DNA of 33,922 nucleotides from a virus (taxonomy: Duplodnaviria; Heunggongvirae; Uroviricota; Caudoviricetes). Location of the stretch: the IMG/VR virus record IMGVR_UViG_2630968639_000008. The stretch is one strand, 5' to 3'. This document shows, in pieces, positions 991 to 28,715 of this stretch. The notes beneath the pieces were generated by a model. It was not told the origin of the DNA. It saw nothing but the letters and a program-made list of their open reading frames with translations, and made no database searches. Numbering within the stretch: position 1 is the stretch's first letter; every line of letters starts with the position of its first letter. The position numbers and the translations under genes were made by a program.

Positions 991-1012
991 TCCTCACGCT
1001 CCATAAACGACA

Positions 1013-1032: not shown

Positions 1033-1050
1033 CACATAAAACATTTTGCA

Positions 1051-3067: not shown

Positions 3068-3396
3068 CAGTTCACCACCTGTTCAAACTCTGCGCTGAAC
3101 TCAACACGCAGCATACTGACCCGCGACGACCATTTTGCGCAGGTCACCTTTATCTGCCTGTAACCATAAGGCGGCGTCCACAGAAAGGCCTTCCAGCCCC
3201 CGTGCTCAGCCAGAAACAACTCCAGCGCCGTGGCCTCCTCACGGGAGGCAGACAGCGTCACGCTGTACGTTTTCAGGTCAGCGTTCAGCCCGGCAGGCGC
3301 ACGCTGGGAATAGCCATCACCAAAGCGCACCTTTCTTACAGAAGGGGCCGAAGCCACATCCATACCGGGTTTCACTTTCCAGCGGAAGGTTTTCAT
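3067..3396 (-). CDS. M: Tail assembly protein M
   Basis: 109-aa ORF, same length and position as lambda M; 4-nt overlap with H. Confidence 0.9.
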   Translation of the reverse strand: MKTFRWKVKPGMDVASAPSVRKVRFGDGYSQRAPAGLNADLKTYSVTLSASREEATALELFLAEHGGWKAFLWTPPYGYRQIKVTCAKWSSRVSMLRVEFSAEFEQVVN

Positions 3397-6803: not shown

Positions 6804-6818
6804 CGCTGACTCTCCGGA

Positions 6819-7559
6819 TTAACTGGCGGTGACGTTGATTTCTGCAACCGCAGCAAACTCACCATTACCAGATACGACCGGAATGTTGACCTTGCCTGCA
6901 GCAACACCTTTCACGGTGATGGTCATACCACTGACCGACACGGTGGCTTTTGTTTTATCCGCAGACACCGCACGGAAGCTCTTGTCGGTTGCGCCATCCG
7001 GCTGGAATGCCACGGTCAGCGTGGTGCTCTGCCCTTTCACTACGGAAGCACTGGCGGGTGTCACCGTCATGCCGGTCGTCGCCGTCACCGTGCTGCGATC
7101 TTCTGCCATCGACGGACGTCCCACATTGGTGACCTTCACCGTGCGGGTAATCACTTCCTTCGCCGTCACCGCCTTACCGATACTGCTGACCCAGCCACGG
7201 AACACATCGACCGTGCCGTTCGGGAAGCGGATTTTATAGGCACGGGTATCACCTTCATTAAACCACGCCAGCAGCGCCTGCTGCCCCTGCTCTCCGGGCA
7301 TCCACGCCAGCGTGAAGCTGGTATCTCCGGCAGATTTCTGCCCCTGCCCGGTCGCAGTCCAGTCTGCATCTTCATCATCGAGATAGCTGTCGTCATAGGA
7401 CTCAGCGGTCAGTTCGCCGGGCGTCAGGTCTTTAACTTTTGCCAGACGCGACCAGTCAACGTCTGAAAGCGGATTCGCATAAGGGTCACCGCTTCCCTTA
7501 TAAACCCACAGGGTGGTCCCGGCACCTTTCACCGGCATTACAGGATTTGGTACAGGCAT
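6819..7559 (-). CDS. V: Major tail tube protein V
   Basis: Track ORF trimmed to ATG at 7559 ([16 protein letters not shown]...), 246 aa as in lambda V; C-terminal Ig-like region present. Confidence 0.9.
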
Positions 7560-7566
7560 AGCGTCC

Positions 7567-7962
7567 TCACATTTCATAGGTAATGACATAAGTCAGATCG
7601 GCTGAACTCCACAGGCCCGCATCATCGTCGCGCCGGTAGTCATAGCCGCTGGCCACCATACTGGTGATCAAATCTGACAGTGCCGGGATATCGCTCATCA
7701 CCGGATAAATCCGGGACTCCATCCACGCATCCAGCTCTGAATCCGGCACCTGAGCAGGCAGGAAAACTTCAATATGCAGCTCCGCCTGCCAGGTATCGCT
7801 GTCCAGCTCTTCGCCCGTGTATTCAGCGCCGGTGAGATAAACGGCAATTGCCGGAAAATCTTCCTCATCAAAAACAGCGGGGCGACCATCAAAAAGCGTC
7901 GCCCCGGTGTCATGCTTCTCCAGTGCATCCAGTACGGCTGCACGGAGTTCAGTATGTTTCAT
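7567..7962 (-). CDS. U: Tail terminator protein U
   Basis: 131-aa ORF matching lambda U in length and position. Confidence 0.9.
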
Positions 7963-8537
7963 CGCTTTATTACCATTCTCAGTTGATGCTGCAGCGCATA
8001 GCCCAGCTCTTTCGGAAGACGTTCACGCCGTATCCGTTCAATATTTTGTTTAAACGCCGTGGTCAGCGGTACCGCCATCGGGATTTTCACCACATCAATG
8101 GGGTAACGGTTTTTCCCGGCCACACGCTGCATAACATGCCACCGGCCGTTTTTCAGTTGCTGAATAAACGCGCCGGGAATACGACGGTTACCCACCACAA
8201 GCACGCTGCCGCCACCTTTCAGGGATGAACGCTGCCCCTTTTTACGACGCCTGCGGCGGGACAGGACAACCCGCGCATTACCCAGCTTGATTACGGGCAA
8301 ATCCCCCCGGTTAACTTTGATTCTGGCCTGCGGATTTTTGACCGTGGCCCTTTTCAGCCTGGCCCTTTCCTTTACCAGTTTCCGGCGTACCTTTGTCTCA
8401 CGGGCAACCTGTGACGCAGACTGCGATATCGCGGATGAAGCAACGCGGTTAATGGCCATTGCGGCGGCACCGGGCACCGCCGTTTTGCTGATACGGCTGA
8501 GGTTTTCAACGGCCTGCTCAAGACCTTTTATGGCCAT
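7959..8537 (-). CDS. Z: Tail completion protein Z
   Basis: 192-aa basic ORF matching lambda Z. Confidence 0.9.
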   Translation of the reverse strand: MAIKGLEQAVENLSRISKTAVPGAAAMAINRVASSAISQSASQVARETKVRRKLVKERARLKRATVKNPQARIKVNRGDLPVIKLGNARVVLSRRRRRKKGQRSSLKGGGSVLVVGNRRIPGAFIQQLKNGRWHVMQRVAGKNRYPIDVVKIPMAVPLTTAFKQNIERIRRERLPKELGYALQHQLRMVIKR

Positions 8538-8548
8538 ACATCCCCCTT

Positions 8549-8902
8549 TCAGCGGCGACGGTTAACGGCAGGCGGTACGCCCCGTCCAAGCCAGAGATGA
8601 CAACTTCCGCCATCATCCGGCGAAACCCGATCTACCCAGAAATTTTCCTCACCGATGGTCAGCGTGTCTCCACGCCGCAGCTGCCGCACCTCATCAGTCC
8701 GGACAAACAGGGACGGGCTGGAGCCTTCAACGCGCACGCCCTGTCCGGCATAGCTGATATTTTCAGGGTCATCAAAAACACTACGTATCACAGCACCGGA
8801 CTGCTCACCGGATGTCATGGTGGCTGACGTTCCCATGTACCCGCGTATCGTTTCATCGGCGCGGGCAATGGCAGCATCGAACAGGTTATCGAAATCAGCC
8901 AC
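8549..8902 (-). CDS. FII: Head-tail joining protein FII
   Basis: 117-aa ORF MADFDNLFDAAIARADETIRGYMG..., matching lambda FII. Confidence 0.9.
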   Translation of the reverse strand: MADFDNLFDAAIARADETIRGYMGTSATMTSGEQSGAVIRSVFDDPENISYAGQGVRVEGSSPSLFVRTDEVRQLRRGDTLTIGEENFWVDRVSPDDGGSCHLWLGRGVPPAVNRRR

Positions 8903-8913
8903 AGCGCCTCCCG

Positions 8914-9312
8914 TTATTGCATTCTGGCCAGGCCGCGCGCTGTCATTTCAGCTGACACACCGGCAGAGACACGAAACGCCGTTCCCGGCAGCACAAATGC
9001 CACAGGTTCATCCCGCGTGGCGTGAAGTGCATCAGTATGCAGCGTCACCAGTGCCACGACCGTGACCAGTTCAGACGTATCCAGAATCACGGTATCCGGC
9101 TGCGCTGATCCCACCTCATTTTCATGTCCGGTCAGCACATTTTCCCGGCTGAGAGGGGTGTCCTGACCGGCAGTTTCATCCGTGTCATCAAGCTCCTCTT
9201 CCAGCTCTGCCACACGGAGCGCCAGTTCTTCTTTCGTCCCCGTCAGGCTGACATCACGGTTCAGTTGTTCACCCAGCGAGCGGAGACGGGCAATCAGTTC
9301 ATCTTTCGTCAT
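8914..9312 (-). CDS. FI: DNA packaging protein FI
   Basis: Track ORF trimmed to ATG at 9312 (MTKDELIARLRSLGEQ...), 132 aa; GGAGGAG lies just upstream. Confidence 0.85.
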   Translation of the reverse strand: MTKDELIARLRSLGEQLNRDVSLTGTKEELALRVAELEEELDDTDETAGQDTPLSRENVLTGHENEVGSAQPDTVILDTSELVTVVALVTLHTDALHATRDEPVAFVLPGTAFRVSAGVSAEMTARGLARMQ

Positions 9313-9353
9313 GGACTCCTCCACAGAGAGAAAATGGCCCCGAAGGGCCATGA

Positions 9354-10379
9354 TTACGCCAGTTGAACGGCCACGAACTCATCAGGATCAGCCAGCAGCA
9401 TCAGCGGTGCTGACTGAATCATGGTGAACTCTCGCGCCGGATCGCCGGATGTCTTCCAGTTTTTCGGATAACGGGGAGACGCATTAATACCCTCACTCAA
9501 TGCATCCGCATCCTGAATACAGCCATAGGTGCGCAGACCGCGTGCCTGAGTGTTCCCCAGCACCATCGTGTTGTCCGGCAGGAAGTTCTTTTTGACGCCG
9601 TTTTCCACGTACTGTCCGGAATACACGACGATGGCCACATCGCCATACATCCCCTTATAGGACACCGCTTTACCCAGGTCTTTCACCGCTGTCTCCAGCT
9701 CGGAATGAGAGCCACGACGGGTATCCAGCTTCTCCCTGACGGCTTTGAAGGAACGGAACAGCGCCCAGCCTTTCGGATCGAACACGATGATATTCACCAC
9801 ACCGCTGGCGTTCAGCGCGTAGGCTTCGATATCGTCGGTCGGGTCATACGTGGACTTGTCACGCTTGCTCCACTCCGTGCCGCCGGACTGCGTGATGTTA
9901 TTCTCCTCACTGCGGCCCATATCCACCTCAACCGGATCGAAGGCTTCACCGGTCATGGTGTATTTGCCCTTAAGCACGGCAGAAACTGCCTGCATCTCTT
10001 CGACCTGAGCAATGGCCAGCTCTTCGTCACGCATGTTCTGCATGATGATGCGACGGCGGCGGTAAGCCGGGTCCGCCAGATTCTGCGGATCTTCATCCGG
10101 CAGGCGACGCAGGGTCATCTGCGGATTCACTTCATGCTTCGGCTTGACATATCCCGGCGTAAATTCAGAGGTGGAGCCGCCACGGGAACGGATAACCTCA
10201 CCGGAAACAATCGGCGAAACGTACAGCGCCATGTTTACCAGTCCCGGAATTTGTGAGAGATAGACTTTCTCCGTGGTGAAGGGATAGCTCTCACGGAAAA
10301 AGAGACGCAGAAACAGCGGATCAAACTTAAATTTCTGCTCATTTGCCGCCAGCAGCTGGGCGGTTGTGTACATCGACAT
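9354..10379 (-). CDS. E: Major capsid protein E
   Basis: Trimmed to ATG at 10379 (MSMYTTAQLLAANEQKF...), 341 aa, matching lambda E. Confidence 0.9.
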   Translation of the reverse strand: MSMYTTAQLLAANEQKFKFDPLFLRLFFRESYPFTTEKVYLSQIPGLVNMALYVSPIVSGEVIRSRGGSTSEFTPGYVKPKHEVNPQMTLRRLPDEDPQNLADPAYRRRRIIMQNMRDEELAIAQVEEMQAVSAVLKGKYTMTGEAFDPVEVDMGRSEENNITQSGGTEWSKRDKSTYDPTDDIEAYALNASGVVNIIVFDPKGWALFRSFKAVREKLDTRRGSHSELETAVKDLGKAVSYKGMYGDVAIVVYSGQYVENGVKKNFLPDNTMVLGNTQARGLRTYGCIQDADALSEGINASPRYPKNWKTSGDPAREFTMIQSAPLMLLADPDEFVAVQLA

Positions 10380-10434
10380 AAAAAAATCCCGTAAAAAAAG
10401 CCGCACAGGCGGCCTTTAGTGATGAAGGGTAAAG

Positions 10435-10767
10435 TTAAACGATGCTGATTGCCGTTCCGGCAAACGCGGTCCGTTTTTTCGTCTCGTCGCTGGCAGCCTC
10501 CGGCCAGAGCACATCCTCATAACGGAACGTGCCGGACTTGTAGAACGTCAGTGTGGTGCTGGTCTGGTCAGCAGCAACTGCAAGAATGCCAACGGCAGCA
10601 CCGTCGGTGGTGCCATCCCACGCAACCAGCTTACGGGTGGAGGTGTCCAGCATCAGCGGGGTCATTGCAGGCGCTTTCGCACTCAATCCGCCGGGCGCGG
10701 TTGCGGTATGAGCCGGGTCACTGTTGCCCAGCGGCTGGTAATGGGTAAAGGTTTCTTTGCTCGTCAT
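10435..10767 (-). CDS. D: Head decoration protein D
   Basis: Trimmed to ATG at 10767 ([12 protein letters not shown]...), 110 aa, matching lambda D. Confidence 0.9.
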
Positions 10768-10776
10768 AAACATCCC

Positions 10777-12076
10777 TTACACTGGTGTGTTCAGCAAATC
10801 GTTAACGGCATCAGATGCCGGGTTACCTGCAGCCAGCGGTGCCGGTGCCCCCTGCATCAGACGATCCAGCGCAGTGTCACTGCGCGCCTGTGCACTCTGT
10901 GGTGCTGCGGCCAGAATGCGGCGGGCCGTTTCCACGGTCATACCGGGGGTTTCTGCCAGCACGCGGGCCTGTTCTTCGCGTCCGTGAGCCTCCTCACAGT
11001 TGAGGATCCCCATAATGCGGCTGTTTTCTGCCGCAACCGCTGCGGTGATCTGCGCGTTCACGTCCGGCTGCGCCGCGCTGGCGTTTTCGCCCTCCGTCGC
11101 TGGCACCACGTCAGTAACGTCAGCCTACGAAGCAGTGGCTGAAACAGTTGTTGATTGAGTCTCTTTGGTCATTCGCCCTCCTGAGAGACGGGATTTACGT
11201 GCATCCAGTGCATCACGCATGACGGTGATCGCATCGGTGCTGTTAACAAGTTCATCAGCCAGTCCGGCATCAATGGCCTCCTGACCGCTGTACACTGCAG
11301 CCTCGGTATCCAGCACAGCCTGCACGGACAGGCCGGTATATGCCGACACCTTCTGCGCAAACATCCGGCGGGTTGCATCCATCCGGGACTGCAGTGTCTC
11401 CCGGACGTCATCCGGAAGATGGCTGTAGGGGTTGCCATCCACCTTATGGCTGCCGCTGTAAATCAGCGTGATTTCCACGCCCTGTTTCTCCAGCGCAGCA
11501 CCGTAATTACTGTGAGCCATCATGACGCCGATGGAGCCTGTCCGGGCGGTCTGCGTGACCAGACGCCGGGAGGCGGCGCTGGCAAGCAGCTGACCTGCAC
11601 TGCAGTTCATGTCGTTGGCCAGCGCCCATACCGGTTTTATGTCTCGCACACGGGCGATGATGTCAGCACAGTCAAATGCTCCCGCCACCATCCCGCCCGG
11701 TGTGTCCATATCGAGCAGAATGCCGTCCACCATCGGATCGCTGGCAGCCTGTTGCAGACGGGCGATAATGCCGTTGTAACCGGTCATTCCCGAATACGGC
11801 TGCAGCGCCCGCGTCCGGCTGACCAGCGTACCGGACACCGGCAGCACGGCGATGCCGTTCATGACCTGATAACTGCGGGCCTGTCGTGGTCCGTCATCAT
11901 CACCGGATAACGCCAGCGCCGCGGGTGCCTCTCCGGCAGTCAGGCTGTCGCCGGACACCGCATCCGTCAGGCGACTGATCCCAAGCTGGCCTGCAAGCGC
12001 ACAAAAGAAAATCCGCGCATAGGCGGGTTCAAGCATCAGCGGCTCATTAAAAGCCATGCTGGCAATATGCGGGAGA

Positions 12077-12096
<20 letters not shown>
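10777..12096 (-). pseudogene. C: Prohead protease/scaffold gene C with nested Nu3, interrupted by a single in-frame TAG at 11127..11125
   Basis: GTG start at 12096..12094 preceded by GGAGGAG; the frame is otherwise continuous to the stop at 10777 (439 codons, lambda C length). Reading across the TAG gives ...TVSATAS*ADVTDVVPATEGE... Uninterrupted segments are 11125..12096 and 10777..11109. Would be functional only with amber suppression. Confidence 0.75.
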
Positions 12097-15777
<3,681 letters not shown>

Positions 15778-15803
<26 letters not shown>

Positions 15804-16323
15804 TCAGCAACCCCGGTATCAGTTCATCCAGCGCGGCTGCTTTGTTCATGGCTTTGATGATATCCCGTTTCAGGAAATCAACATGTCGGTTTTCCAGTTC
15901 CGGAAAACGCCGCTGCACCGACAGGGGGATCCCGTCGAGAATACTGGCAATTTCACCTGCGATCCGCGACAGCACGAAAGTACAGAATGCGGTTTCCACC
16001 ACTTCAGCTGAGTCTCTGGCATTCTTCAGTTCCTGTGCGTCGGCCTGCGCACGCGTAAGTCGATGGCGTTCGTACTCAATAGTCCCTGGCTGGAGATCTG
16101 CCTCGCTGGCCTGGCGCAGTTCTTCAACCTCCCGGCGCAGCTTTTCGTTCTCAATTTCAGCATCCCTTTCGGCATACCATTTTATAACGGCGGCAGAGTC
16201 ATAAAGCACCTCATTACCCTTGCCACCGCCTCGCAGAACGGGCATTCCCTGTTCCTGCCAGTTCTGAATGGTACGGATACTCGCACCGAAAATGTCAGCC
16301 AGCTGCTTTTTGTTGACTTCCAT
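15778..16323 (-). CDS. nu1: Terminase small subunit Nu1
   Basis: 181-aa ORF MEVNKKQLADIFGASIRTIQNWQEQGMPVLRGGGKGNEV..., matching lambda Nu1; first gene after cos. Confidence 0.92.
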
Positions 16324-16560
16324 TGTTCATTCCACGGACAAAAACAGAGAAAGGAAACGACAAAGGCCCAAAAGTTCGTTTTCAGCACCTGTCGTTTCCT
16401 TTCTTTTCAGGGGGTATTTTAAATAAAAACATTAAGTTACGACGAAGAAGAACGGAAACGCCTTAAACCGGAAAATTTTCATAAATAGCGAAAACCCGCG
16501 AGGTCGCCGCCCCGTAACCTGTCGGATCACCGGAAAGGACCCGTAAAGCGATAATGATTA
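16324..16560 (-). other. cos region: cosN 12-nt cohesive-end sequence at 16501-16512, cosB between cosN and Nu1, cosQ side at 16513-16560
   Basis: Plus strand reads AGGTCGCCGCCC at 16501-16512, the reverse complement of the lambda cohesive end GGGCGGCGACCT; flanking sequence matches the recalled lambda right end (...GTTACGGGGCGGCGACCTCG). Confidence 0.85.
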
Positions 16561-16711
16561 TCATCTACATATCACAACGTGCGTGGAGGCCATCAAACCA
16601 CGTCAAATAATCAATTATGACGCAGGTATCGTATTAATTGATCTGCATCAACTTAACGTAAAGACAACTTCAGACAATACAAATCAGCGACACTGAATAC
16701 AGGGCAACCTC

Positions 16712-16906
16712 ATGTCAACGAAGAACAGAACCCGCAGAACAACAACCCGCAACATCCGCTTTCCTAACCAAATGATTGAACAAATTAACATCGCTCTTGT
16801 TCAAAAAGGGTCCGGGAATTTCTCAGCCTGGGTCATTGAAGCCTGCCGTCGGAGACTAACGTCAGAAAAGAGAGCATATACATCAATCCAAAGTGATGAT
16901 GGATGA
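16712..16906 (+). CDS. Hypothetical small protein with ribbon-helix-helix-like pattern (possible DNA-binding protein)
   Basis: 64-aa ORF; RNIRFP strand-like segment followed by two short helices (NQMIEQINIALVQKG, NFSAWVIEACRRRL) resembles the Arc/CopG fold; same strand as bor. Weak RBS. Confidence 0.35.
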   Translation: MSTKNRTRRTTTRNIRFPNQMIEQINIALVQKGSGNFSAWVIEACRRRLTSEKRAYTSIQSDDG

Positions 16907-17268
16907 ACATCCCGGTTTCTTCCACCATCGCACCGGAAAAGCGACTATGAGGGTAACCCTGCGTCTGTCAGCACAGTAAAACCCGGTGTGCATCGTTTTT
17001 GATTATTCCCGCACACTCACGCAGAAGGAATTCCCCGTCGGGCTACGGTCATGGTTAATGCGGGAATACGGCGACGATACAGCGCAGCTAAAAGGGTAAT
17101 AGACGGATAGACCGATTTATTTCATTCCACAGGATTCTGAGTGTCCCCAACTTCCTCCAATAGTCTGAGCGTACACCTATATAGTTTTAATTTTCATCAA
17201 TCCATTTAACTATCGTTTAATTGTTGTCACATAGGATTCTGCCGTTTTTAACAATGCAGGATAATAAG

Positions 17269-17562
17269 ATGAAAAAAATGTTGTTTTCTGCCGCTCTGGC
17301 AATGCTTATTACAGGATGTGCTCAACAGACGTTTACTGTTGGAAACAAACCTACAGCAGTAACACCAAAGGAAACCATCACCCATCATTTCTTCGTTTCG
17401 GGAATTGGACAGGAGAAAACTGTTGATGCAGCCAAAATTTGTGGCGGCGCAGAAAATGTTGTTAAAACAGAAACCCAGCAAACATTCGTAAATGGATTTC
17501 TCGGTTTTATTACTTTAGGCATTTATACTCCGCTGGAAGCGCGTGTGTATTGCTCACAATAA
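17269..17562 (+). CDS. bor: Bor lipoprotein (serum-resistance type lysogenic-conversion protein)
   Basis: Track ORF trimmed to ATG at 17269: MKKMLFSAALAMLITGCAQQ... has a signal peptide and lipobox (LITGC); 97 aa; antisense to the lysis genes as in lambda. Confidence 0.85.
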   Translation: MKKMLFSAALAMLITGCAQQTFTVGNKPTAVTPKETITHHFFVSGIGQEKTVDAAKICGGAENVVKTETQQTFVNGFLGFITLGIYTPLEARVYCSQ

Positions 17563-17593
17563 TTGCATGAGTTGCCCATCGATATGGGCAGCT

Positions 17594-18055
17594 CTATCTG
17601 CACTGCTCATTAATATACTTCTGGGTTCCTTCCAGTTGTTTTTGCATAGTGATCAGCCTCTCTCTGAGGGTGAAATAATCCCATTCAGCGGTGTCTGCCA
17701 GTCGGGGGGAGGCTGCATTATCCACGCCGGAGGCGGTGGTGGCTTCACGCACTGACTGACAGACTGCTTTGATGTGCAACCGACGACGACCAGCGGCAAC
17801 ATCATCACGCAGAGCATCATTTTCAGCTTTCGCATTAGCTAACTCCTTCGTGTATTTTTCATCCAGTGCAGCAACATCACGCTGGCGCATCTGCATGTCA
17901 GTAATTGCCGCGTTCGCCAGCTTCAGTTCTCTGGCATTTTTGTCGCGCTGGGCTTTGTAGGTAATGGCGTTATCACGGTAATGATTAACAGCCCATGACA
18001 GGCAGACGATGATGCAGATAACCAGAGCGGAGATAATCGCGGTTACTCTGTTCAT
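17594..18055 (-). CDS. Rz: Spanin inner-membrane subunit Rz
   Basis: 153-aa ORF with an N-terminal TM segment and coiled coil; matches lambda Rz; ATGA overlap with R. Confidence 0.9.
17653..17835 (-). CDS. Rz1: Spanin outer-membrane lipoprotein Rz1 (embedded in the +1 frame of Rz)
   Basis: 60-aa [26 protein letters not shown]... with lipobox (VVGC) and a proline-rich stretch, lying wholly inside Rz. Confidence 0.85.
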
Positions 18056-18549
18056 TGCTTACCCCACAAACAGATTTCACGCTCAATCTCACGACGAGTC
18101 ATGAGACCTTTCCATTGCTTACCGCCAGCATATGTCCAGCGACGTAGCTGATCACATGCGCCTTTGATATCACCCTGGTTTATTTTGCGAAGAAGCGTCG
18201 ATATTCTGAAATTGCCAGCACCCACGTTGTAGACGAACGAGTAAAGAGCGCCGCGCGTTGTTTCCGGTATATCGACTTTGATGTACGGGTTAATTTGTCT
18301 GGCGACAGTGGCAAGGTCTTTATTCAGGAGGGCTTTGCATTCTGCTTCGGTATACGTTTTACCGGGAATGATGTCTTTTCCTGTATGCCCGTGACATACA
18401 GTCCATACGCCAACGATATCTTTATATGGTATGTAGCTGACACCTTCCAGACCATCGTCACCACTCGGACCAGTGATGAGCACAGACGCTATGGCAACAG
18501 CCCCACCACCAATAGCAGCTGCTACAGCCTTGCGTAATGATGGCGACAT
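18052..18549 (-). CDS. R: SAR endolysin (phage 21 R-type lysozyme)
   Basis: 165 aa; N-terminal Gly/Ala-rich weakly hydrophobic segment ([20 protein letters not shown]) typical of a signal-anchor-release domain, followed by a lysozyme core with the E...D...T motif region ([24 protein letters not shown]). Not the lambda R transglycosylase. Confidence 0.85.
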
Positions 18550-18764
18550 TATTCACCTCTCGCAGCCTTACGCTTATCTTCTTTAATCTTGAAATAAAGG
18601 TTTGTCAGGTACGTCAGCAGGCCAAATACCAGGCTACCCAGCACTCCAATTGCCGCCCACTGTGAGGGCGTGACTTTATCTAGCAGCTGTAAAAACCAGT
18701 ACCCGGCACTACCTGCTGAGGTGCCATAGGCGACACCCGTTGTTAACTTATCCATGGATTTCAT
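18549..18764 (-). CDS. S: Pinholin (phage 21 S-type), dual-start motif MKSM
   Basis: 71 aa with two TM segments and Met1/Met4 dual start (holin/antiholin); immediately upstream of the SAR endolysin. Confidence 0.85.
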
Positions 18765-18874
18765 AACCCCACCTCGCAGACAAAGCGGGTGTAAATTGAG
18801 GGAATACTACGAAACGTAACAGACTCGGAGTCAGTGAATAACTCAGGTATTGGGTTATCAGCTAATATCGAGAC

Positions 18875-18909
18875 TCAAAAAATGGAAAAACCCGCTCGAC
18901 GGCGGGTTT
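18875..18909 (-). terminator. Candidate intrinsic terminator or attenuator upstream of S on the late strand
   Basis: Stem AAACCCGC / GCGGGTTT (18888-18895, 18902-18909), loop TCGACG, followed on the minus strand by TTTCCATTTTTT. Confidence 0.4.
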
Positions 18910-19336
18910 AAGCTGTGTGACGAAGTAACCACTCTTAACAGCATAACCAATTTTTTACGTACGTAAACCACTAAATGATATTTGCGAGAATGCTACCGAG
19001 TATTGAAAACACCACTACAAATACATAAGCAAATCTCAACAAATAACCAACAAATAATTTCCAGTGTTATTTTCAGCCGGTTTAAATTGAACCTTCAAAT
19101 TATAGAGCACTTATAAATAACAGCCGTTAATATAAATTGGCTAATAGATTTATTTTTATTCAGCCAAGAGCCATGAATAGGATTCGATAGAAAAAAGTTC
19201 AGATAAAAATAGAGATCTACTTCACAAATCAAACGAGAAACCAAAACTTACATCTTGAAATAATCACATTGATTAGATGAATATTTATCGCGCAGTGACA
19301 TCATTTTTTAATAATAGTTCAAAAAAAGGGCTCACG

Positions 19337-20434
19337 ATGAAAAAATTAACAGTGGCAATTTCTGCTGTAGCTGCATCAGTACTGATGGCGATGTCTGCTC
19401 AGGCAGCTGAAATTTATAATAAAGACAGTAACAAGCTGGATCTGTACGGGAAAGTTAATGCTAAGCACTACTTCTCCTCTAATGATGCAGATGATGGTGA
19501 TACTACTTATGCCCGTCTTGGCTTCAAAGGTGAAACCCAAATCAACGATCAACTGACTGGTTTCGGTCAGTGGGAATATGAATTCAAAGGCAACCGCGCT
19601 GAATCTCAAGGTTCCTCCAAAGATAAAACCCGTCTTGCCTTCGCTGGCCTGAAATTCGGTGACTACGGCTCCATCGATTACGGCCGTAACTACGGTGTAG
19701 CATACGACATCGGTGCGTGGACTGACGTCCTGCCAGAATTCGGTGGTGACACTTGGACTCAAACCGACGTGTTCATGACTCAACGTGCAACTGGTGTTGC
19801 AACCTATCGTAACAACGACTTCTTTGGTCTGGTTGATGGTCTGAATTTTGCTGCTCAGTACCAAGGCAAAAACGATCGTAGCGATTTCGATAACTACACT
19901 GAAGGTAACGGTGATGGCTTCGGTTTCTCTGCTACCTATGAATACGAAGGATTCGGTATCGGTGCAACTTATGCGAAATCTGATCGTACCGACACTCAAG
20001 TTAATGCAGGGAAAGTTCTTCCTGAAGTATTTGCTTCCGGTAAAAATGCAGAAGTTTGGGCCGCAGGTCTGAAATATGACGCTAACAACATTTACCTGGC
20101 CACTACCTATTCTGAAACCCAGAATATGACTGTATTTGCTGATCACTTCGTTGCTAATAAAGCCCAAAACTTCGAAGCTGTTGCACAATATCAGTTCGAT
20201 TTCGGTCTGCGTCCGTCCGTTGCTTACCTGCAATCTAAAGGTAAGGATCTTGGAGTATGGGGCGATCAGGACTTAGTCAAATATGTTGATGTAGGTGCAA
20301 CCTATTACTTCAACAAAAATATGTCTACTTTCGTTGATTACAAAATCAACCTGCTTGACAAAAATGACTTCACTAAAGCACTCGGTGTAAGCACTGATGA
20401 CATCGTTGCTGTAGGTCTGGTTTACCAGTTCTAA
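19337..20434 (+). CDS. OmpC/OmpF-family general porin (prophage NmpC/Lc-type), apparently intact
   Basis: 365 aa from ATG 19337 (track ORF starts upstream): signal peptide [29 protein letters not shown], porin beta-barrel hallmarks, C-terminal ...VGLVYQF; long AT-rich promoter region upstream; antisense to Q and S as in DLP12 nmpC. Confidence 0.85.
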
Positions 20435-20571
20435 TCTGATTACGAAAAAGATATGTTGCGGGAGACGTTGCCTCCCCAACATATAAGTGGCTCCCTCAAG
20501 CCACTTCCTTTAGAAGCACAACCTTGCTTCTAACTATATAAACCTTCTGTTATATATTACCCTTTATTTTT

Positions 20572-20606
20572 GGGGGCGTCTCAACGCCCCATTTTTAATA
20601 ATTTTT
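20572..20606 (+). terminator. Rho-independent terminator downstream of the porin gene
   Basis: Stem GGGGCG / CGCCCC (20573-20578, 20585-20590) followed by ATTTTTAATAATTTTT. Confidence 0.55.
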
Positions 20607-20623
20607 AGTAAACAATTGGCATA

Positions 20624-21007
20624 TTAATTAGAGTTATTAACAACGATATCCATCTCTAACCGGATATCTAATGCCATTAACATCCCTTCAATTATGCCCT
20701 CAGCCTTCTGTAACCTTTTCCCGATATAACCATCAGAGCAGCAATGCTTACCTGCCAGTGACATGAATGTCATACCGACTACATAATAATCTACTAATAA
20801 ATCGTGCAAATCGCTGTTGTTCTTTTTCAGACGGGCCATGCACCCGCAAATGATCATCGCGTCATCGTCACAACATTGCGGGCGAGATTTTACTTTTGAA
20901 GTAATTAATCCCTTAAAACCGGCGGCAATGGACGACCAGGTCACATCTTCATGATTATTAGCCGCCCACGCTCCCCAACGCTCAAGAACCATCTGAATAT
21001 CACGCAT
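20624..21007 (-). CDS. Q: Late-gene antiterminator Q (phage 82 / DLP12 QuuD-like)
   Basis: Trimmed to ATG 21007 ([21 protein letters not shown]...), 127 aa, Cys-rich ([27 protein letters not shown]); upstream of the lysis cassette on the same strand. Confidence 0.7.
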
Positions 21008-21229
21008 CAACTTACTCCACAAAAATCAGACCAGAACGCCAATTACAAGCAAAAATCAATAAAACAGTATTAGTTGATTGTTATCTCTGACTTCATACTC
21101 CTGCTCCTGTCAGGGTTTTGGCGTAATTCCTCAGTATTCGGTAATCGGTCAAAACAGAACTGGGGAAACGATATAAGCGCAGGCGCATCCAGCGGTGGCG
21201 AAGAAGTTCTGCCATATAAAACTCAAACA

Positions 21230-21592
21230 TCATTCATCTCCCAGTTCAGTGATGGTCAGCTCCAGCTTTCCACCTTTGACAACCGGCATCTTCACAACGC
21301 GGTAATCAACGATCTGAGCATCATCCAGCCAGAAACCTGCTTTGGTGAGTGCGTCAAAAGAGGCTTTTTGTAGATTATCCAGGTCACGGCGACGGCGATC
21401 CGGCATGTGGCACTCAATGCGGATTTTCACAGGCATAGCCAGACCGATATCCAGCATTGAGCCTTTAATGATTCGGGCGACGTTATCGCGGTATGCCTGC
21501 CCTTCTGCGCTGATGTGCGTGCGCCCTCGATTATGGCGGTAGTAGCGGTTATTGCTCGGCGGCCAGGGTAGTGTGATGTGGTAAGTATTCAC
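21230..21592 (-). CDS. rusA: Holliday junction resolvase RusA
   Basis: 120-aa [29 protein letters not shown]... with the acidic catalytic region ([10 protein letters not shown]); matches recalled DLP12 RusA. Confidence 0.85.
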
Positions 21593-21879
21593 GCCTTAAT
21601 TACCCCCTCTTTCAGCCAGATAACCTGCGTTCTCGCCATACCTTCCAGCGCGCATTCTTTTGCATATCCAGCGTCAACAAAATGCGTGCGGCGGTCGATT
21701 TCGTCGTGGCAGGCAGAACATGCAATGGTGGCAATCAGGTCTGGCGGTTTCGTACCGGTGCCGCACAATCCAGTCAGCCGGATATGTGCCAGTACAGACG
21801 TTTCAGGGTTGCCATTACATACGCCAGGGATTCTTACCTGGCATTCCCGACCACGCGCTGCTTTTCTCAAATCAGCCAT
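21589..21879 (-). CDS. ybcO: YbcO-like nin-region protein (Cys-rich, putative nuclease)
   Basis: Trimmed to ATG 21879 with GGAGGAG upstream; 96 aa; CxxC...CxxC pattern; ATGA-type coupling with rusA. Confidence 0.6.
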
Positions 21880-22042
21880 GACTCCTCCTTGCTGCCAGTC
21901 GCAACCATTTTTTATCAACCAAGCTGGCGGTATATCCGAGCAGTGTTGGTATTTCGGATGGCTTCAGCTCAGGCTTACGCTTACGACGATTTGGTACTCT
22001 GTAGATGTGTCCGTTCATGACACGAATAAGCGGTGTAGCCAT
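21872..22042 (-). CDS. ninE: NinE-like small basic protein
   Basis: 56-aa reading from ATG 22042 (overlapping the ybcN stop as TAATG); C-terminal [10 protein letters not shown] resembles lambda NinE. Confidence 0.5.
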   Translation of the reverse strand: MATPLIRVMNGHIYRVPNRRKRKPELKPSEIPTLLGYTASLVDKKWLRLAARRSHG

Positions 22043-22497
22043 TACGCCTCCTGCTTGTCGCGGAGCTGCTGGAACTCGCAGCTCTGCGGAATAGTCAGAT
22101 GGCAACCAATATTCATCGCCCAGGCTTCAACCTTACACAGGAAGACATACATCTCTCCGGTATCAAGATCGGAGGTATGGCGTAACGACTGGATAGTGGT
22201 GATATCACCGGTTACGACATCAACCAGGTCTTTGGTTTCATAACCGAGATATGTGTGTTTGAGAGCATCTTTTACCCAAGCTGGAGTGGCGAACGTTTTA
22301 CCCTTGCTGATGAGGTATTCACTGATTTCGCTGTACCACATGTGGCTGAGTGCATTCTGGGAAAGACTGCGTCTCTCGCGCCACGGTTTAAGCACCATGC
22401 GAAAGCATTTGCCGTCCTCCAGATAAGGCTGGATCTGCTGGCCGATAGCGGTGAAGTTGCCGCGATGTAATTTGATGCCGTCTTGTGAAAGGTTCAC
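22042..22497 (-). CDS. ybcN: NinB / YbcN-family protein
   Basis: 151-aa ORF with the RSLSQN motif, as in the NinB family; first conserved gene right of the AT-rich island. Confidence 0.6.
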
Positions 22498-22616
22498 GCT
22501 TCACCTCCGCAGAGGTCAAACGCTGGATGCAAAGAATTGCAGGTGCATTTCTGCATCTGTGAAGGGAGAAGAGAGTTTGGATTGTATGTGCGCATAAACG
22601 TCCCCGTTTAGCGCAG

Positions 22617-22649
22617 AAGTCACCGGAGGAGTTCAAACTCCGGTGACTT
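22617..22649. repeat. Perfect 12-bp inverted repeat (AAGTCACCGGAG ... CTCCGGTGACTT) with a 9-nt loop
   Basis: Seen directly; lies at the junction between the nin genes and the AT-rich cargo; no clean U-tract on either strand. Confidence 0.7.
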
Positions 22650-22718
22650 AATTATGACAAGTTGATTATTGAAAATCAAAAGTCATTTAAACAATAATGA
22701 TACCCCGCAAGAGATTTC

Positions 22719-23120
22719 TTATTTTAACTCATAGATCAGACAGTCAACGATTTCTAAACCATTTACCATAGAATTAGAAACGCGAACTTTACCATCGTTG
22801 ACTCTAGCAAATCCTTTTAACATTTTATAAATAAAAGCTGAATCCCCCTTAGCCTCAATTGCTTCTAATGGTATCGGCTTATACTTTTTTGATATGCTAT
22901 TTCTATTTATCTCACTGATTTTTCTATATATTTCTGCCGGTCCACGTTCTGAGAAGTCACTGATAACTAAAATATATCTCCAAGATAGATCTGGGTAATA
23001 AAACCACATTGCAGCATCAATAGTTAAATTCTGTAACTTGAGTTTTTTTAATAAAAATTGACCTGAGAATTCCATATCTTTTGTCAACTCTCTGCCGATT
23101 ACCAGTGTGCTTTTACCCAT
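22719..23120 (-). CDS. Hypothetical protein, downstream partner of the HEPN-like gene (overlapping, translationally coupled)
   Basis: 133-aa ORF; ATG at 23120 with GGAG 9 nt upstream; overlaps the upstream gene by 22 nt; AT-rich codon usage; no motif recognised. Confidence 0.5.
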   Translation of the reverse strand: MGKSTLVIGRELTKDMEFSGQFLLKKLKLQNLTIDAAMWFYYPDLSWRYILVISDFSERGPAEIYRKISEINRNSISKKYKPIPLEAIEAKGDSAFIYKMLKGFARVNDGKVRVSNSMVNGLEIVDCLIYELK

Positions 23121-23515
23121 TTCAAAACTCCAGAATTTTGGTCACCTACAGCATCAAACAATTGTTCGGCCATAGCTTTACTTATGTTATTGTCGTATCT
23201 AAATTGCTCGCTCCAGTCTTTAACGACCGACCAGTTAATCTCCAACGAAACATCATTTTTTGCGTCAGCAATCAAAATTTGATGTAAGTTGGCAATTTTG
23301 AGAAGTTGCGACAAATCATGAGTATATGAATCATTTACGACTTTTTTGTTTGGAAACTCATGTTGTAAAAATGACTTGGCAATACAGGCCTTCAATGCAC
23401 ATTCAACTGCATACCCACAAAGATAATATGCACCATGAAAAAAGCCATGATCAAGCAAGCATTTGGCCTCATTAAGCCTAGTGTCAGATAATGCTTCAAG
23501 GTCGTTTTTATTCAT
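23099..23515 (-). CDS. HEPN-domain-like protein (candidate toxin or abortive-infection nuclease)
   Basis: 138-aa ORF; helical pattern GAYYLCGYAVECALKACIAKSF, THDLSQLL and C-terminal RYDNN resemble HEPN four-helix-bundle proteins; AT-rich; TATAAT sits immediately upstream of the ATG. Confidence 0.55.
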   Translation of the reverse strand: MNKNDLEALSDTRLNEAKCLLDHGFFHGAYYLCGYAVECALKACIAKSFLQHEFPNKKVVNDSYTHDLSQLLKIANLHQILIADAKNDVSLEINWSVVKDWSEQFRYDNNISKAMAEQLFDAVGDQNSGVLKWVKAHW

Positions 23516-23934
23516 ACAATTATAACTTGAATTATCCTAATTTTTATGATTATACCCTTATCAGGTATGATGTAGGAACTGAAAACAATATTGGATATCA
23601 TTTTCGGTATTTCTCTGCAAATTCCAGCCCACAGGATCTCGGTGTACAATCTGTCGCTGATCGCGCAAATTTAGGGTCAATCACTTCATTTTTTGCATCA
23701 AACCCTCACTAACATCGAACGATTATAGTACAAGTAGTGTTCTTGACTTCTCATTAAACCGTCAGCATTCAATTAATTACAAAATACTAGCGGCATTTCT
23801 CTCCCGCAACTTTATTACAGCCGTTCAGAACGTAAATGCGTCAATACTCGAATCAACTGATCATCCTGCCACGACTGAAATCTCAAATAGGCCGTTTCTC
23901 AAGTAAGAGATTTTGAATGCATTATTGGCTACTG

Positions 23935-23962
23935 AAATAAAAAACCCAGCGCCAACTGGGTT
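23935..23962 (-). terminator. Rho-independent terminator after the secreted-protein gene
   Basis: Minus strand: stem AACCCAG / CTGGGTT with loop TTGGCG, followed by TTTTTTATTT; 17 nt downstream of the stop at 23980. Confidence 0.6.
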
Positions 23963-23979
23963 CATATGAAATTTTTTTG

Positions 23980-24474
23980 TCATTTCCAATTGCAAGACTG
24001 TGAAATTTTTTCCACAACCTTATCAATCTCAGACAAGTCAAACTCAACTACTTGCATAGTTGATCCATAAGGTTCAAACCCAAAAATAGCTTTTTTATGC
24101 TTAGCCAAGGTCTTTATAAATTGTATTGGTTGTGGAGCAAATGCAGAATCACCGCCTTCCCCACCACCCCAAACACTCTTGACCGGCTTTCCGCCATCTA
24201 ACCGCACTGTAATTCTTGGGTTGTCCGAACCCATATAATCATTGAATGATAAATAGGCATCTGTTTTGTTATCACTACAACGCAACACCAGTGAAGTTGC
24301 ACGATCAGTACCTGCTTTGTTATATGAATCTGGTGATAAATTAAGAGCCACAAAGTCAGTCTGGTCAGTCATTTTATTTATCTCAGACTTTGTTATCCAC
24401 GGCCCTAACTTCTCTACACCAGCATTTGCTGTAAACGAGGCACTTATGACAAAGGCTAAAATAAATTTTCTCAT
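23980..24474 (-). CDS. Hypothetical secreted/periplasmic protein (moron)
   Basis: 164-aa ORF with a signal peptide (MRKFILAFVISASFTANA/GVEK), AGGAGA RBS 8 nt upstream, own terminator; AT-rich. Confidence 0.6.
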   Translation of the reverse strand: MRKFILAFVISASFTANAGVEKLGPWITKSEINKMTDQTDFVALNLSPDSYNKAGTDRATSLVLRCSDNKTDAYLSFNDYMGSDNPRITVRLDGGKPVKSVWGGGEGGDSAFAPQPIQFIKTLAKHKKAIFGFEPYGSTMQVVEFDLSEIDKVVEKISQSCNWK

Positions 24475-24620
24475 AACCCTATCTCCTTGGCTTCAAAGAA
24501 CTAAATATTATCAAGTCTCTTGCCACTAGAAAACCCACTTTATTTCCAAACTCTGATGGCATTCCTGAAAATCCGCTTCATACTCACTTGCCCCGCCCTA
24601 TCATCCTGAGTAGCTAACCG

Positions 24621-24794
24621 TTAAACAAACGTTCGCCAGACCTTACCATCAATGACCAGGATTCCTGCACGCGCCATTTTAGCTGCTGCCTGATTTATGC
24701 AGGTTACTGTCACACCTGTTGCCGCAGCAACGTCCTGCGCACAGAAGCTCTTATGCGTCCCCAGGTAATAAATAATTGCCTCTTTGCCCGTCAT
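24621..24794 (-). pseudogene. ren: Truncated ren-like gene (57 codons)
   Basis: ATG at 24794 overlapping the P stop; hand translation MTGKEAIIYYLGTHKSFCAQDVAAATGVTVTCINQAAAKMARAGILVIDGKVWRTFV then stop; matches the N-terminal part of lambda Ren as I recall it (full length about 96 aa). Below the track length cutoff. Confidence 0.5.
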
Positions 24795-26504: not shown

Positions 26505-27050
26505 TCATATTGCCCCCAGCATGGTGGTGACCATCGCCATCAGTGGACCAGCCAAATCCGGGTCCACACGAAACATCGACACAATGCCTTCACTCATCTC
26601 CTTCAGTTTCTGGTGGCGTGGTGCGTTGAGAATGACAGCCTGTTTTGCCTCACTGAGTTCCTTTTCCATTTCAGCCAGCCGAGCCATGTAGCTATCCTGC
26701 TCAACCAGGTGGCCGCGATATTCCAGCGGTAGTACCGCCAGAATTGCCGGGGTCAGTTCACGCACGTTATTTCGGTATTTTTCAGAATCGAATTTGTTAT
26801 CGAGGAAGCGGAACAGCTTCTGGCGTGCACGGCTGACATCATCAGGGAAATCGATGGTGCCGCCGCCCTGCTCCCGATACTCATTCACAATGAGTGCGGC
26901 AACAACATCCTGATTATCTGCAGCCGACCAGGCGCGAACGGCATCACGGATTTTTTCGTGGCCTGGCGCCTGTTTTGTTTGAGAACGATTTATCACCGCA
27001 GTCGGGCTAAATCCGCTAGTCTGTTGGTATGTAAGTGGTTGCATAGTCAT
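26505..27050 (-). CDS. Hypothetical protein in the cII position (possibly YdaT-family)
   Basis: 181-aa ORF between cro and O on the early-right strand; not lambda CII-like in size or sequence; family assignment is a tentative recollection. Confidence 0.4.
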   Translation of the reverse strand: MTMQPLTYQQTSGFSPTAVINRSQTKQAPGHEKIRDAVRAWSAADNQDVVAALIVNEYREQGGGTIDFPDDVSRARQKLFRFLDNKFDSEKYRNNVRELTPAILAVLPLEYRGHLVEQDSYMARLAEMEKELSEAKQAVILNAPRHQKLKEMSEGIVSMFRVDPDLAGPLMAMVTTMLGAI

Positions 27051-27074
27051 TGCCTTATCAGTTAACGCCGCAGT

Positions 27075-27302
27075 TTAGGCGGCAGAATTACTCGCGTTAA
27101 ACAATGGTGCGAGGTCGGGACGAATATCTGCTGGTTTAATCTTTCCACCAGTGGCTGAGACAATTTTCATTACATAGCGGGCATCAATTCCGCCACCGTG
27201 TAGCCAACGCCAAACTGTGGGTTGGGCTACACCGCATAGATCTGCCAGTCGTTTTTGACTACCTGTAATACTGATTGCGAGTTGAATGGTTTGATTTGTC
27301 AT
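27075..27302 (-). CDS. cro: Cro-like HTH repressor (YdaS/Cro family)
   Basis: 75 aa from ATG 27302; HTH region QKRLADLCGVAQPTVWRWL; divergent from cI across the operator region. Confidence 0.7.
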   Translation of the reverse strand: MTNQTIQLAISITGSQKRLADLCGVAQPTVWRWLHGGGIDARYVMKIVSATGGKIKPADIRPDLAPLFNASNSAA

Positions 27303-27412
27303 TATCAATTCCTATTGGTATTGCAATGAATAAATAATAGCAATGCGTATTAACCCAAGCAATAGCAAAACGTGTTTTGACCATCAATACGCAAGCGTAT
27401 AAATTAAAACTT
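27303..27412. promoter_or_regulatory. Right operator/promoter region (OR): three related 14-bp operator sites with candidate pR and pRM
   Basis: Sites ATAGCAATGCGTAT (27337-27350), ATAGCAAAACGTGT (27362-27375), ATACGCAAGCGTAT (27387-27400, perfect palindrome), spaced 25 bp. Candidate pR on minus strand: -35 TTGCTT (27362..27357), 17-bp spacer, -10 TATTAT (27339..27334). Candidate pRM on plus strand: -35 TTGACC (27377-27382), -10 TAAATT (27400-27405), placing the start near the cI ATG. Confidence 0.6.
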
Positions 27413-28105
27413 ATGAAAAAAGAAACTCTTGCTGATCGCTTAAACCTAGCGATGGAACAATCTGGAATGTCTCAAGGCGCTCTTGCAAAGGCGTCTGGCG
27501 TAGCTCAACCCACAATCTGGAGACTGACAAGCGGCAACGCGCGCGGCTCAACAAAAATTGTTGAAATAGCTAATGCATTGGGTGTTCGAACAGAATGGCT
27601 CTCATCAGGCATAGGCCCGATGAGAAATGACGGTCAACAATCAGGGAAGCCTGCTGTCAGCCATTCAAAATACTTCAAGATTGACGTTCTTGATATAGAA
27701 GTCAGTGCCGGACCGGGTGTCATCAACCGTGAGTTTGTGGAAGTTCTACGCTCGGTTGAGTACTCGTTTGACGATGCTCGTCACATGTTCGATGGCAGGA
27801 AGGCGGAAAATATCCGCATTATTAACGTGCGCGGTGACAGCATGTCAGGGACGATCGAACCAGGTGACCTGCTGTTCGTTGATATCACTGTTAAATCTTT
27901 CGACGGTGATGGCATCTATGCGTTTCTGTACGACGACACTGCCCATGTAAAACGTCTTCAAATGATGAAGGATAAGCTGCTGGTTATCTCTGATAACAAG
28001 AGCTACTCGCCGTGGGACCCGATCGAGAAAGACGAGATGAACCGGGTGTTCATATTCGGTAAGGTCATTGGAAGCATGCCGCAGACGTACAGGAAGCATG
28101 GTTAA
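27413..28105 (+). CDS. cI: CI-type prophage repressor (HTH plus S24 LexA-like autopeptidase domain)
   Basis: 230 aa from ATG 27413; N-terminal HTH (MSQGALAKASGVAQPTIWRL); Ala-Gly cleavage site (EVSAGPGV), Ser in RGDSMSG and Lys in HVKRLQ; divergent from cro. Confidence 0.85.
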   Translation: MKKETLADRLNLAMEQSGMSQGALAKASGVAQPTIWRLTSGNARGSTKIVEIANALGVRTEWLSSGIGPMRNDGQQSGKPAVSHSKYFKIDVLDIEVSAGPGVINREFVEVLRSVEYSFDDARHMFDGRKAENIRIINVRGDSMSGTIEPGDLLFVDITVKSFDGDGIYAFLYDDTAHVKRLQMMKDKLLVISDNKSYSPWDPIEKDEMNRVFIFGKVIGSMPQTYRKHG

Positions 28106-28334
28106 TTTATCTACGACTTAAGGGAGCGAAGGTTAAGGTTTATACCACTCGGATTAGATATTGCACTAAATTCTCTATAAGAACGCCAAATCTGTTTGCA
28201 TATTTCAGTAAATATTCTCGTTGTTAGCTGAGATTTGTTGCTACTGTCAGCAAAATGTCCCCCTATCTCGTAGCGGTTTTTATTTCGAATCATTATGTTA
28301 AGATGTTTCTGATTATAATGAATGGAAACATAAA

Positions 28335-28715
28335 ATGAGAAAAATCCTAATCGCTGCCATGATGGCATCTCTATTGGCTGGGTGTGCTTCTTCAGGCAAC
28401 CAGCAACTCAAAAATGAAACTGAAACTAGTGTCCAGTCTAAACTTCAGGAAGGTAAAACAACCAAGAATGAGGTTAAATCTTACTTTGGTTCTCCTGATG
28501 CTGTTTCATATACTGACAGTGGAAACGAGATCTGGAAGTACGCCTTTGCAAAAGTAAAAGTTAATGGCACCACTTTTATTCCATTCTATGGATTATTCCA
28601 TAATGGAACGAACGGTACGAAAAAAGAACTTACTATTCTTTTTAACGATGACACGATTAAGAAATACACAATGTCAGAAACCCAAATAAACTCGAAATCA
28701 GGTTGGGCTGACTGA
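28335..28715 (+). CDS. Hypothetical lipoprotein downstream of cI (rex-position moron)
   Basis: 126 aa; signal peptide and lipobox (LLAGC); AT-rich; same strand as cI; followed by a terminator; mid-region resembles a BamE/SmpA_OmlA-like fold only loosely. Confidence 0.6.
   Translation: MRKILIAAMMASLLAGCASSGNQQLKNETETSVQSKLQEGKTTKNEVKSYFGSPDAVSYTDSGNEIWKYAFAKVKVNGTTFIPFYGLFHNGTNGTKKELTILFNDDTIKKYTMSETQINSKSGWAD

Follow-up and report, generated by a model that had tools for sequence, protein, structure and literature searches.

A phage-21/DLP12-type lysis cassette in a lambda-like prophage of Escherichia coli

Organization of the lysis cassette

The DNA analyzed in this study comprises 33,922 nucleotides (nt) of the IMG/VR virus record IMGVR_UViG_2630968639_000008, a member of the Caudoviricetes, and is referred to as the window; all positions given without further specification are positions of this complete stretch. 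According to the list of open reading frames, the window contains four lysis genes, S, R, Rz and Rz1, that are located on the minus strand between positions 17594 and 18764. A preliminary description of the DNA had given exactly these coordinates and gene calls. The genes of the cassette and the sequence elements within them, including the segment encoding the signal-anchor-release (SAR) region of the R protein, are as follows:

18549-18764, minus strand: S (EssD-type), 71 amino acids, class II holin/antiholin of the phage 21 pinholin family
18549-18755, minus strand: S68 reading frame beginning at Met4, as read from the MKSMDK sequence
18052-18549, minus strand: R (RrrD-type), 165 amino acids, SAR endolysin and T4-type (GH24) lysozyme
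18472-18528, minus strand: predicted SAR segment, codons 8-26 of R, delimited by composition and hydropathy
18052-18055, minus strand: ATGA overlap of the R stop codon and the Rz start codon, read from the sequence
17594-18055, minus strand: Rz (RzpD-type), 153 amino acids, inner-membrane spanin subunit
17653-17835, minus strand: Rz1 (RzoD-type), 60 amino acids, outer-membrane lipoprotein spanin subunit

The four genes are tightly packed. The stop codon of S and the start codon of R share one base in the sequence TAATG (18547-18551), and the Rz1 gene lies wholly inside Rz in the +1 frame, its start codon being located 220 nt (1 modulo 3) past that of Rz. The Pfam scores of all four lysis proteins were far above the curated cut-offs. 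A comparison with the NCBIfam profiles yielded no match for four proteins, and R gave only sub-threshold hits to the GTA endolysin and SpmX models.

A search with 4 kb of the window (16500-20500) revealed 100% identity to the E. coli STEC409 chromosome, which is annotated with a lambdoid prophage beside dsdC/torI. Along its late strand, the STEC409 prophage has the gene order quuD, antisense porin gene, essD, rrrD, rzpD, iss (bor) and ylcI, followed by the genes for terminase, head and tail. A BLAST comparison aligned positions 1-16512 of the window with positions 16494-1 of the lambda genome at 96.9% identity, which confirms the earlier view that the structural genes are lambda-like. With a probability of about 95%, the region is considered to represent a complete and apparently functional S-R-Rz-Rz1 cassette of the phage-21/DLP12 type that is part of a lambda-like prophage in the chromosome of E. 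coli. As far as can be judged from the sequence, all features accessible to testing place the cassette in the phage-21/DLP12-type family, and no evidence against this classification was found in the sequence. The type of cassette is already known, and its genes are annotated as essD, rrrD and rzpD in the identical STEC409 RefSeq record.

In the comparisons described below, wild-type phage 434 (OL657226) was used as the 434 comparator, and phage 434B stands for the DLP12 copy of the module. The lysis region of 434B represents a replacement by DLP12 sequences (PMC9119081), and the identity columns of 434B match those of DLP12 across S-R-Rz.

The S and R proteins

The deduced S protein matched the Pfam family PF04971 (Bacteriophage P21 holin S) with 121 bits at a cut-off of 26. 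Its amino acid sequence is 100% identical to EssD of DLP12 (434B copy) and 85.9% identical to S of phage 21 (S21), and a forced alignment with the S protein of lambda resulted in about 22% identity. Two uncharged stretches, comprising residues 7-28 and 31-58, specify two predicted membrane segments, in comparison with three in lambda S. The first of these stretches is only weakly hydrophobic, the hydropathy threshold being exceeded only by residues 31-58, and the C-terminus is predicted to be basic and charged. The N-terminal sequence MKSMDK provides two potential starts, Met1, which is followed by the additional Lys2, and Met4. In the records of phage 21 and 434B, the corresponding starts carry the annotations S71 and S68, i.e. 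antiholin and holin of class II. By analogy with S21, the S68 product initiated at Met4 is probably the pinholin proper, and the S71 product initiated at Met1 probably acts as the antiholin. The holes formed by S21 are small (about 2 nm), such that the membrane is depolarised and a folded soluble endolysin is not released (PMC6139136). The preliminary description had proposed a pinholin-type S with an MKSM dual start; this proposal agrees with the PF04971 match, the MKSMDK sequence and the two uncharged stretches, and the PF04971 match and the two membrane segments do not fit a holin of the lambda type with three membrane segments.

The R protein matched PF00959 (Phage_lysozyme) with 154 bits, and the best matches among solved structures, all extending over the full length of R with E-values of about 1e-106, were 4zpu, which is RrrD of DLP12, and 3hde/3hdf. 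The latter two are named just 'Lysozyme' by the search tool, and we take them to be the R protein of phage 21 (R21). The amino acid identity of R is 94.5% to R21, 94.5% to the DLP12 copy (434B) and 21% to the R protein of lambda. The PF00959 match and the low identity to lambda R do not agree with a soluble transglycosylase of the lambda type. Residues Glu35, Asp44 and Thr50, presumably corresponding to the catalytic triad of R21, are all present in R with the spacing of T4 lysozyme.

Residues 8-26 of R consist to 63% of Gly, Ala, Ser and Thr, have a mean Kyte-Doolittle hydropathy of 2.09 and are preceded by Arg6-Lys7. Because of this composition, hydropathy and basic flank, the segment carries the signature of a signal-anchor-release segment, a type that lacks a signal-peptidase site and a lipobox. 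The segment differs from that of R21 by a single residue, V18 in place of I18. In lambda R, which was used as a control, a hydrophobic segment was absent and the maximum hydropathy was 0.04. Accordingly, the Gly/Ala-rich SAR N-terminus noted earlier was recovered by the transmembrane prediction for R and not for lambda R. The identity of 94.5% to R21 suggests that R is likewise exported by the Sec system, tethered to the membrane in an inactive state and released on loss of the membrane potential. This behaviour has been described for R21, a tethered SAR endolysin that is released on depolarisation (PMC6139136).

The Rz and Rz1 spanin subunits

The Rz protein matched PF03245 (Bacteriophage Rz lysis protein) with 181 bits, and Rz1 matched PF06085 (Lipoprotein Rz1 precursor) with 72 bits. 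An N-terminal transmembrane domain (TMD) was detected in Rz at residues 4-22, and two cysteine residues, Cys99 and Cys152, are present in the protein. Rz1 contains the lipobox VVVGC with Cys20, followed by Cys29, and its mature part of 41 residues includes 10 prolines. The cysteine positions are those that we assume, from the lambda literature, to be used for disulfide-linked spanin dimers. The label 'endopeptidase' that is found in several database records is wrong for this cassette.

At the nucleotide level, the Rz gene is 98.1% identical to those of lambda and phage 21 and 95.9% identical to the DLP12 copy (434B), and the respective values for Rz1 are 98.9% (lambda), 99.5% (phage 21) and 98.9% (DLP12 copy). 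The deduced Rz protein shares 97.4% of its residues with lambda Rz and 96.1% with phage 21 Rz, and Rz1 is 100% identical to the phage 21 protein and 98.3% identical to the lambda protein. Both genes are clearly lambda-like, in agreement with the preliminary description. The lambda and phage 21 sequences are themselves 98.7% identical in Rz and 99.5% in Rz1, and Rz of the cassette can therefore not be assigned to lambda in preference to phage 21. The RzRz1 spanin complex is used by both lambda and phage 21 (PMC6139136).

Among the phage hits, many alignments of the cassette stop inside Rz, either at query position 826 (about 17939) or at query positions 954-957 (about 17808-17811), and alignments of Shiga toxin (Stx) phages begin at query position 771 or 779. 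This distribution suggests recurrent intragenic homology boundaries in Rz (17808-17939, minus strand), beyond the part encoding the TMD and close to the start of Rz1.

Comparison with the lysis regions of phage 21, DLP12, lambda and 434

The regions flanking the cassette were included in the comparison with known lysis systems. Three neighbouring genes are relevant in this respect:

20624-21007, minus strand: late antiterminator gene of the quuD type, located upstream of the cassette, as annotated by PGAP in the identical sequence of STEC409
19337-20434, plus strand: intact porin gene (NmpC/Lc-like), 365 amino acids, PF00267 (Porin_1) with 523 bits, PGAP annotation 'porin'
17269-17562, plus strand: bor/iss lipoprotein gene, PF06291 with 104 bits, convergent with the cassette and outside the lysis mechanism

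Phage 21 (OL657228, positions 39866-41036) agrees with the window in the four genes, their order and their overlaps, and likewise has the MKSM dual start, the SAR endolysin and the embedded Rz1 gene. Its S gene is a diverged allele when compared with that of the window (77% nucleotide and 85.9% amino acid identity), and the start codon of S marks the end of the homology between the two. In the region preceding S, phage 21 has a Q gene of its own and two tRNA genes, whereas the porin gene and quuD are present in the window, and a tRNA scan of the window detected no tRNA gene.

The DLP12 prophage of E. coli K-12 (essD-rrrD(ybcS)-rzpD/rzoD) has the same genetic context, with quuD, an antisense porin gene, S, R, Rz/Rz1 and bor, and this module is carried by 434B as well. 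Positions 17215-22681 of the window are 96-97% identical to DLP12, the segment including quuD being 97.2% identical, and the bor/iss product, which is annotated as iss in STEC409, is 100% identical at the amino acid level to the copy derived from 434B/DLP12. The porin gene occupies the same antisense position between quuD and S as the IS5-disrupted nmpC gene of DLP12 in K-12, but it is intact in the window, whereas the DLP12 copy is split by IS5. A further difference concerns the ybcV-ybcW segment of DLP12, which is absent from the window; the sequence found there (16979-17214) is phage-21/434-like, and its alignment with DLP12 is limited to positions 16979-17089 at 83% identity. Moreover, the prophage harbouring the DLP12-like module of the window possesses a full head and tail region of the lambda type.

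Lambda shares with the window the Rz/Rz1 genes (98-99% nucleotide identity), the bor gene (93%), the ATGA overlap of R and Rz and the embedding of Rz1. The S protein of lambda is a class I holin of 107 amino acids and its R protein a soluble transglycosylase of 158 amino acids, with about 22% and 21% identity, respectively, to the proteins of the window. The lysis pathway of lambda differs likewise, since large holes release a cytoplasmic endolysin. Wild-type 434 (positions 45754-46915) encodes a pinholin, a SAR endolysin and lambda-like Rz/Rz1 proteins with the same joint between R and Rz as in the window. Its S gene is, however, a 933W-like allele of 68 codons with a single annotated start (79.5% nucleotide identity to the window), and a SASA-family esterase gene is located upstream without a porin gene.

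A short match outside these systems was observed in the 254-kb record of the Aeromonas phage AP1 (MT713136.1), in which 185 nt at positions 240470-240654 share 90.8% identity with the S gene. Both the host and the genome type are unexpected for an E. coli pinholin gene.

Proposed mechanism of lysis

The steps of the pinholin/SAR-endolysin pathway have been described previously (PMC6139136). The mechanism proposed here is drawn wholly from the studied proteins of phage 21 and lambda, which are 86-100% identical to those of the cassette. The quuD-type antiterminator is presumed to activate the late transcription of the cassette; it would switch on the expression of the four lysis genes by a transcript that reads through the antisense porin gene. 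The R protein would be exported by the Sec system and kept inactive on the inner membrane by its weakly hydrophobic SAR segment. Meanwhile, S68 would build up in the inner membrane, opposed by S71, which with its additional Lys2 would act as an antiholin and delay the triggering. At a set time, S68 would form many small heptameric pinholes and thereby depolarise the membrane. The SAR segment of R would then exit the bilayer, such that R could refold to its active form and degrade the peptidoglycan. Finally, Rz in the inner membrane and the lipoprotein Rz1 in the outer membrane would fuse both membranes and thus remove the outer-membrane barrier.

At positions 18888-18909 (minus strand), some 125 nt ahead of S, the sequence AAACCCGCCGTCGAGCGGGTTT, with a T run behind it, constitutes a terminator-like hairpin. 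The stretch is 100% identical to DLP12 in 50-nt bins. Late transcription would have to read through this hairpin in the direction from 18909 to 18888.

Present use of the cassette

Several observations weigh against a cassette that is complete and functional in the way outlined above. A simple promoter scan yielded fewer sigma-70-like sites than expected by chance and no convincing late promoter. A hairpin was predicted over the ribosome-binding site of S, but it was no more stable than those of shuffled sequences (z = -1.2; 21 of 200 shuffles were as good). Furthermore, the C/Nu3 gene encoding the head protease and scaffold protein (10777-12096, minus strand) contains an in-frame stop at codon 336 (SATAS*ADVT), and gene C of the identical STEC409 sequence is marked as a pseudogene by PGAP. 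For the ren homolog (24526-24794, minus strand), the annotation of the identical record of STEC409 indicates a frameshift and an internal stop. Despite its intact lysis genes, the prophage may not be able to form heads, and because of the stop in C/Nu3 and the frameshift in ren the cassette may no longer serve the release of phage particles.

These defects lead to the alternative of a remnant cassette, domesticated or stranded, which either fulfils a host function or has simply not yet decayed and plays no role in phage release. The host functions in question are effects on cell-wall turnover, vesicles or biofilms of the kind reported for the module of DLP12. Among E. coli chromosomes the module is exceedingly common, and the homologous module of DLP12 in K-12 was reported to be conserved, to be transcribed and to influence the production of outer-membrane vesicles, and a function for the host in the physiology of envelope and vesicles was proposed for it (PMC7918800). 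However, the four lysis genes are all intact in the window, as is almost the entire lambda-like morphogenesis region, which is 97% identical to lambda, and a lone stop codon could be recent or due to a sequencing error. We regard a remnant without a role in phage release as unlikely, albeit deserving of consideration, and it would touch the current use of the cassette alone, neither its identity nor the action of its proteins.

The R/Rz boundary

The preliminary description had regarded the cassette as a mosaic, in which the S and R genes of the phage 21 type had been joined to Rz/Rz1 genes of the lambda type by recombination in this prophage, the ATGA overlap of R and Rz marking the joint. 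A BLAST comparison of the whole window with lambda revealed homology at positions 17215-18055 (94.1% identity), ending at lambda position 45966, which is the A of the Rz start codon ATG. In bins of 50 nt, the identity to lambda rises from 42% to 98% at 18051/18050, and that to phage 21 is 98-100% on both sides. Similarly, in many phages with unrelated endolysins, including lambda, O276, mEp234, Sf101, IME10 and others, the homology to the cassette begins exactly at query position 710, i.e. at the Rz start codon. The R/Rz boundary is, by these alignments, a recurrent one.

The alignment with phage 21 (OL657228) is unbroken from position 16978 to 18765 at 94.4% identity and covers S, R, Rz, Rz1, bor and the sequence beyond. 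The mismatch density in the body of R did not differ from that in Rz in Fisher tests against phage 21 (p = 0.28) and DLP12 (p = 0.16). Against wild-type 434, the test gave a nominal p-value of 0.022, corresponding to a small difference in rate between R and Rz for this comparator. The same joint and gene order are present in phage 21, 434B, wild-type 434 and DLP12 of K-12 (essD-rrrD-rzpD/rzoD). A probe of 300 nt centred on the joint was covered to at least 80% in 3817 of the 5426 complete E. coli genomes (about 70%), at least 80% of the length of the whole cassette was found in 51 phage records, and at least 80% of the length of the 4-kb block from the porin gene through S, R and Rz to bor in 1619 genomes. 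Since phage 21, 434, DLP12 and most E. coli genomes carry the joint, it is not a recombination scar of this prophage.

The R/Rz joint is, judging by its distribution, a real module boundary between lambda and the 21 family, old and common to all 21-type cassettes, and it is uninformative on the history of this particular prophage. The ATGA overlap does coincide exactly with a break in homology to lambda, and this part of the earlier interpretation stands, whereas no break is detectable there against phage 21 or DLP12. Likewise, the opposition of 21-type S/R to lambda-type Rz/Rz1 is a false dichotomy in view of the nearly identical Rz genes of the two phages, and a joint made in this prophage does not agree with its presence in phage 21, DLP12 and 434. 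A prophage-specific recombination event with the ATGA as its scar, which would account for the homology to lambda starting precisely at the Rz start codon in a prophage whose genes from Nu1 to J are 96.9% lambda-like, the head genes of phage 21 being only about 66-69% identical to the window, is hardly credible given that phage 21 itself carries the joint at 98-100% identity on either side, that the phage 21-aligning stretch continues past bor to 16978, that the divergence from phage 21 or DLP12 is unchanged at the joint and that lambda and phage 21 share an almost identical Rz. More generally, a break in homology to one reference such as lambda is no evidence of recent recombination in the genome at hand.

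Genetic composition of the remaining prophage

Outside the structural genes and the cassette, the immunity region of the window (26505-28715) resembles neither that of lambda nor that of phage 21. It includes or adjoins the following genes:

26505-27044, minus strand: YdaT-domain protein, immunity region
27075-27302, minus strand: small helix-turn-helix protein, immunity region
27413-28105, plus strand: XRE-family repressor, immunity region
28335-28715, plus strand: BamE-like lipoprotein gene beside the immunity region

The BLAST comparison of the window with lambda and phage 21 revealed no homolog of the N gene of either phage. The immunity region presumably resembles that of the Rac prophage. 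A simple lambda/21 hybrid prophage was rejected as a description of the window, since its Q-porin region resembles that of DLP12 and neither parent has a similar immunity region.

The nin region (22719-24474, minus strand) contains cargo genes, among them a gene for a HEPN-domain protein (23099-23515) that overlaps an open reading frame of unknown function with 133 codons (22719-23120), and a gene for a protein annotated as 'TagO' (23980-24474, minus strand). These genes may represent defence or toxin-antitoxin cargo.

The window ends at torI (33722-33922, plus strand), which encodes an excisionase-like response-regulator inhibitor and adjoins dsdC in STEC409. We take this end to be the integration module of KplE1/CPS-53 at the argW-dsdC site. 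The lambda-like prophage appears to use this torI-side integration module.

Allelic patchwork within the cassette

The identity to the three reference systems varies along the cassette in a pattern that is unrelated to the R/Rz joint. One segment was delimited in addition to the genes listed above:

18450-18549, minus strand: first 100 nt of R including the SAR-coding part, with a separate allele history according to mismatch counts

The S gene is closest to DLP12 (97.7% nucleotide identity), followed by wild-type 434 (79.5%) and phage 21 (77%). Within the first 100 nt of R, the identity amounts to 95% with wild-type 434, 85% with phage 21 and 81% with DLP12, and the remainder of R is 96.7% identical to phage 21 and 93.7% to both DLP12 and wild-type 434. 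The closest references for Rz are phage 21 and lambda with about 98%. The two allele switches, one at the boundary between S and R and the other roughly 100 nt inside R, were supported by Fisher tests against the flanking segments (p = 9e-7 to 2e-4). The copy in the window is, to judge from these identities, a patchwork with a DLP12-like S gene, a 5' end of R that is like that of wild-type 434, and a phage-21-like sequence from the rest of R through Rz.

The combination of S and 5' R alleles is not unique, because the environmental phage PhiR30_1 carries both at 100% identity. In PhiR30_1 (3710-4111), the cassette comprises 1170 nt in comparison with 1171 nt in the window, and Rz is annotated with just 402 nt. 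The short annotation suggests a frameshift or a sequencing error.

The correct label of the region is a phage-21/DLP12-type module of pinholin, SAR endolysin and Rz/Rz1 spanin, and not a novel hybrid. The importance of the finding is small outside the correct annotation, and the fine patchwork inside the cassette is its sole feature beyond the textbooks. If the intragenic exchange points are real, the SAR segment may be exchanged as a unit apart from the pinholin and the catalytic domain, a tentative idea that we consider possible yet somewhat doubtful. Were it true, large sets of E. coli genomes could show whether the alleles of pinholin and SAR segment co-vary, which would bear on the timing of lysis.

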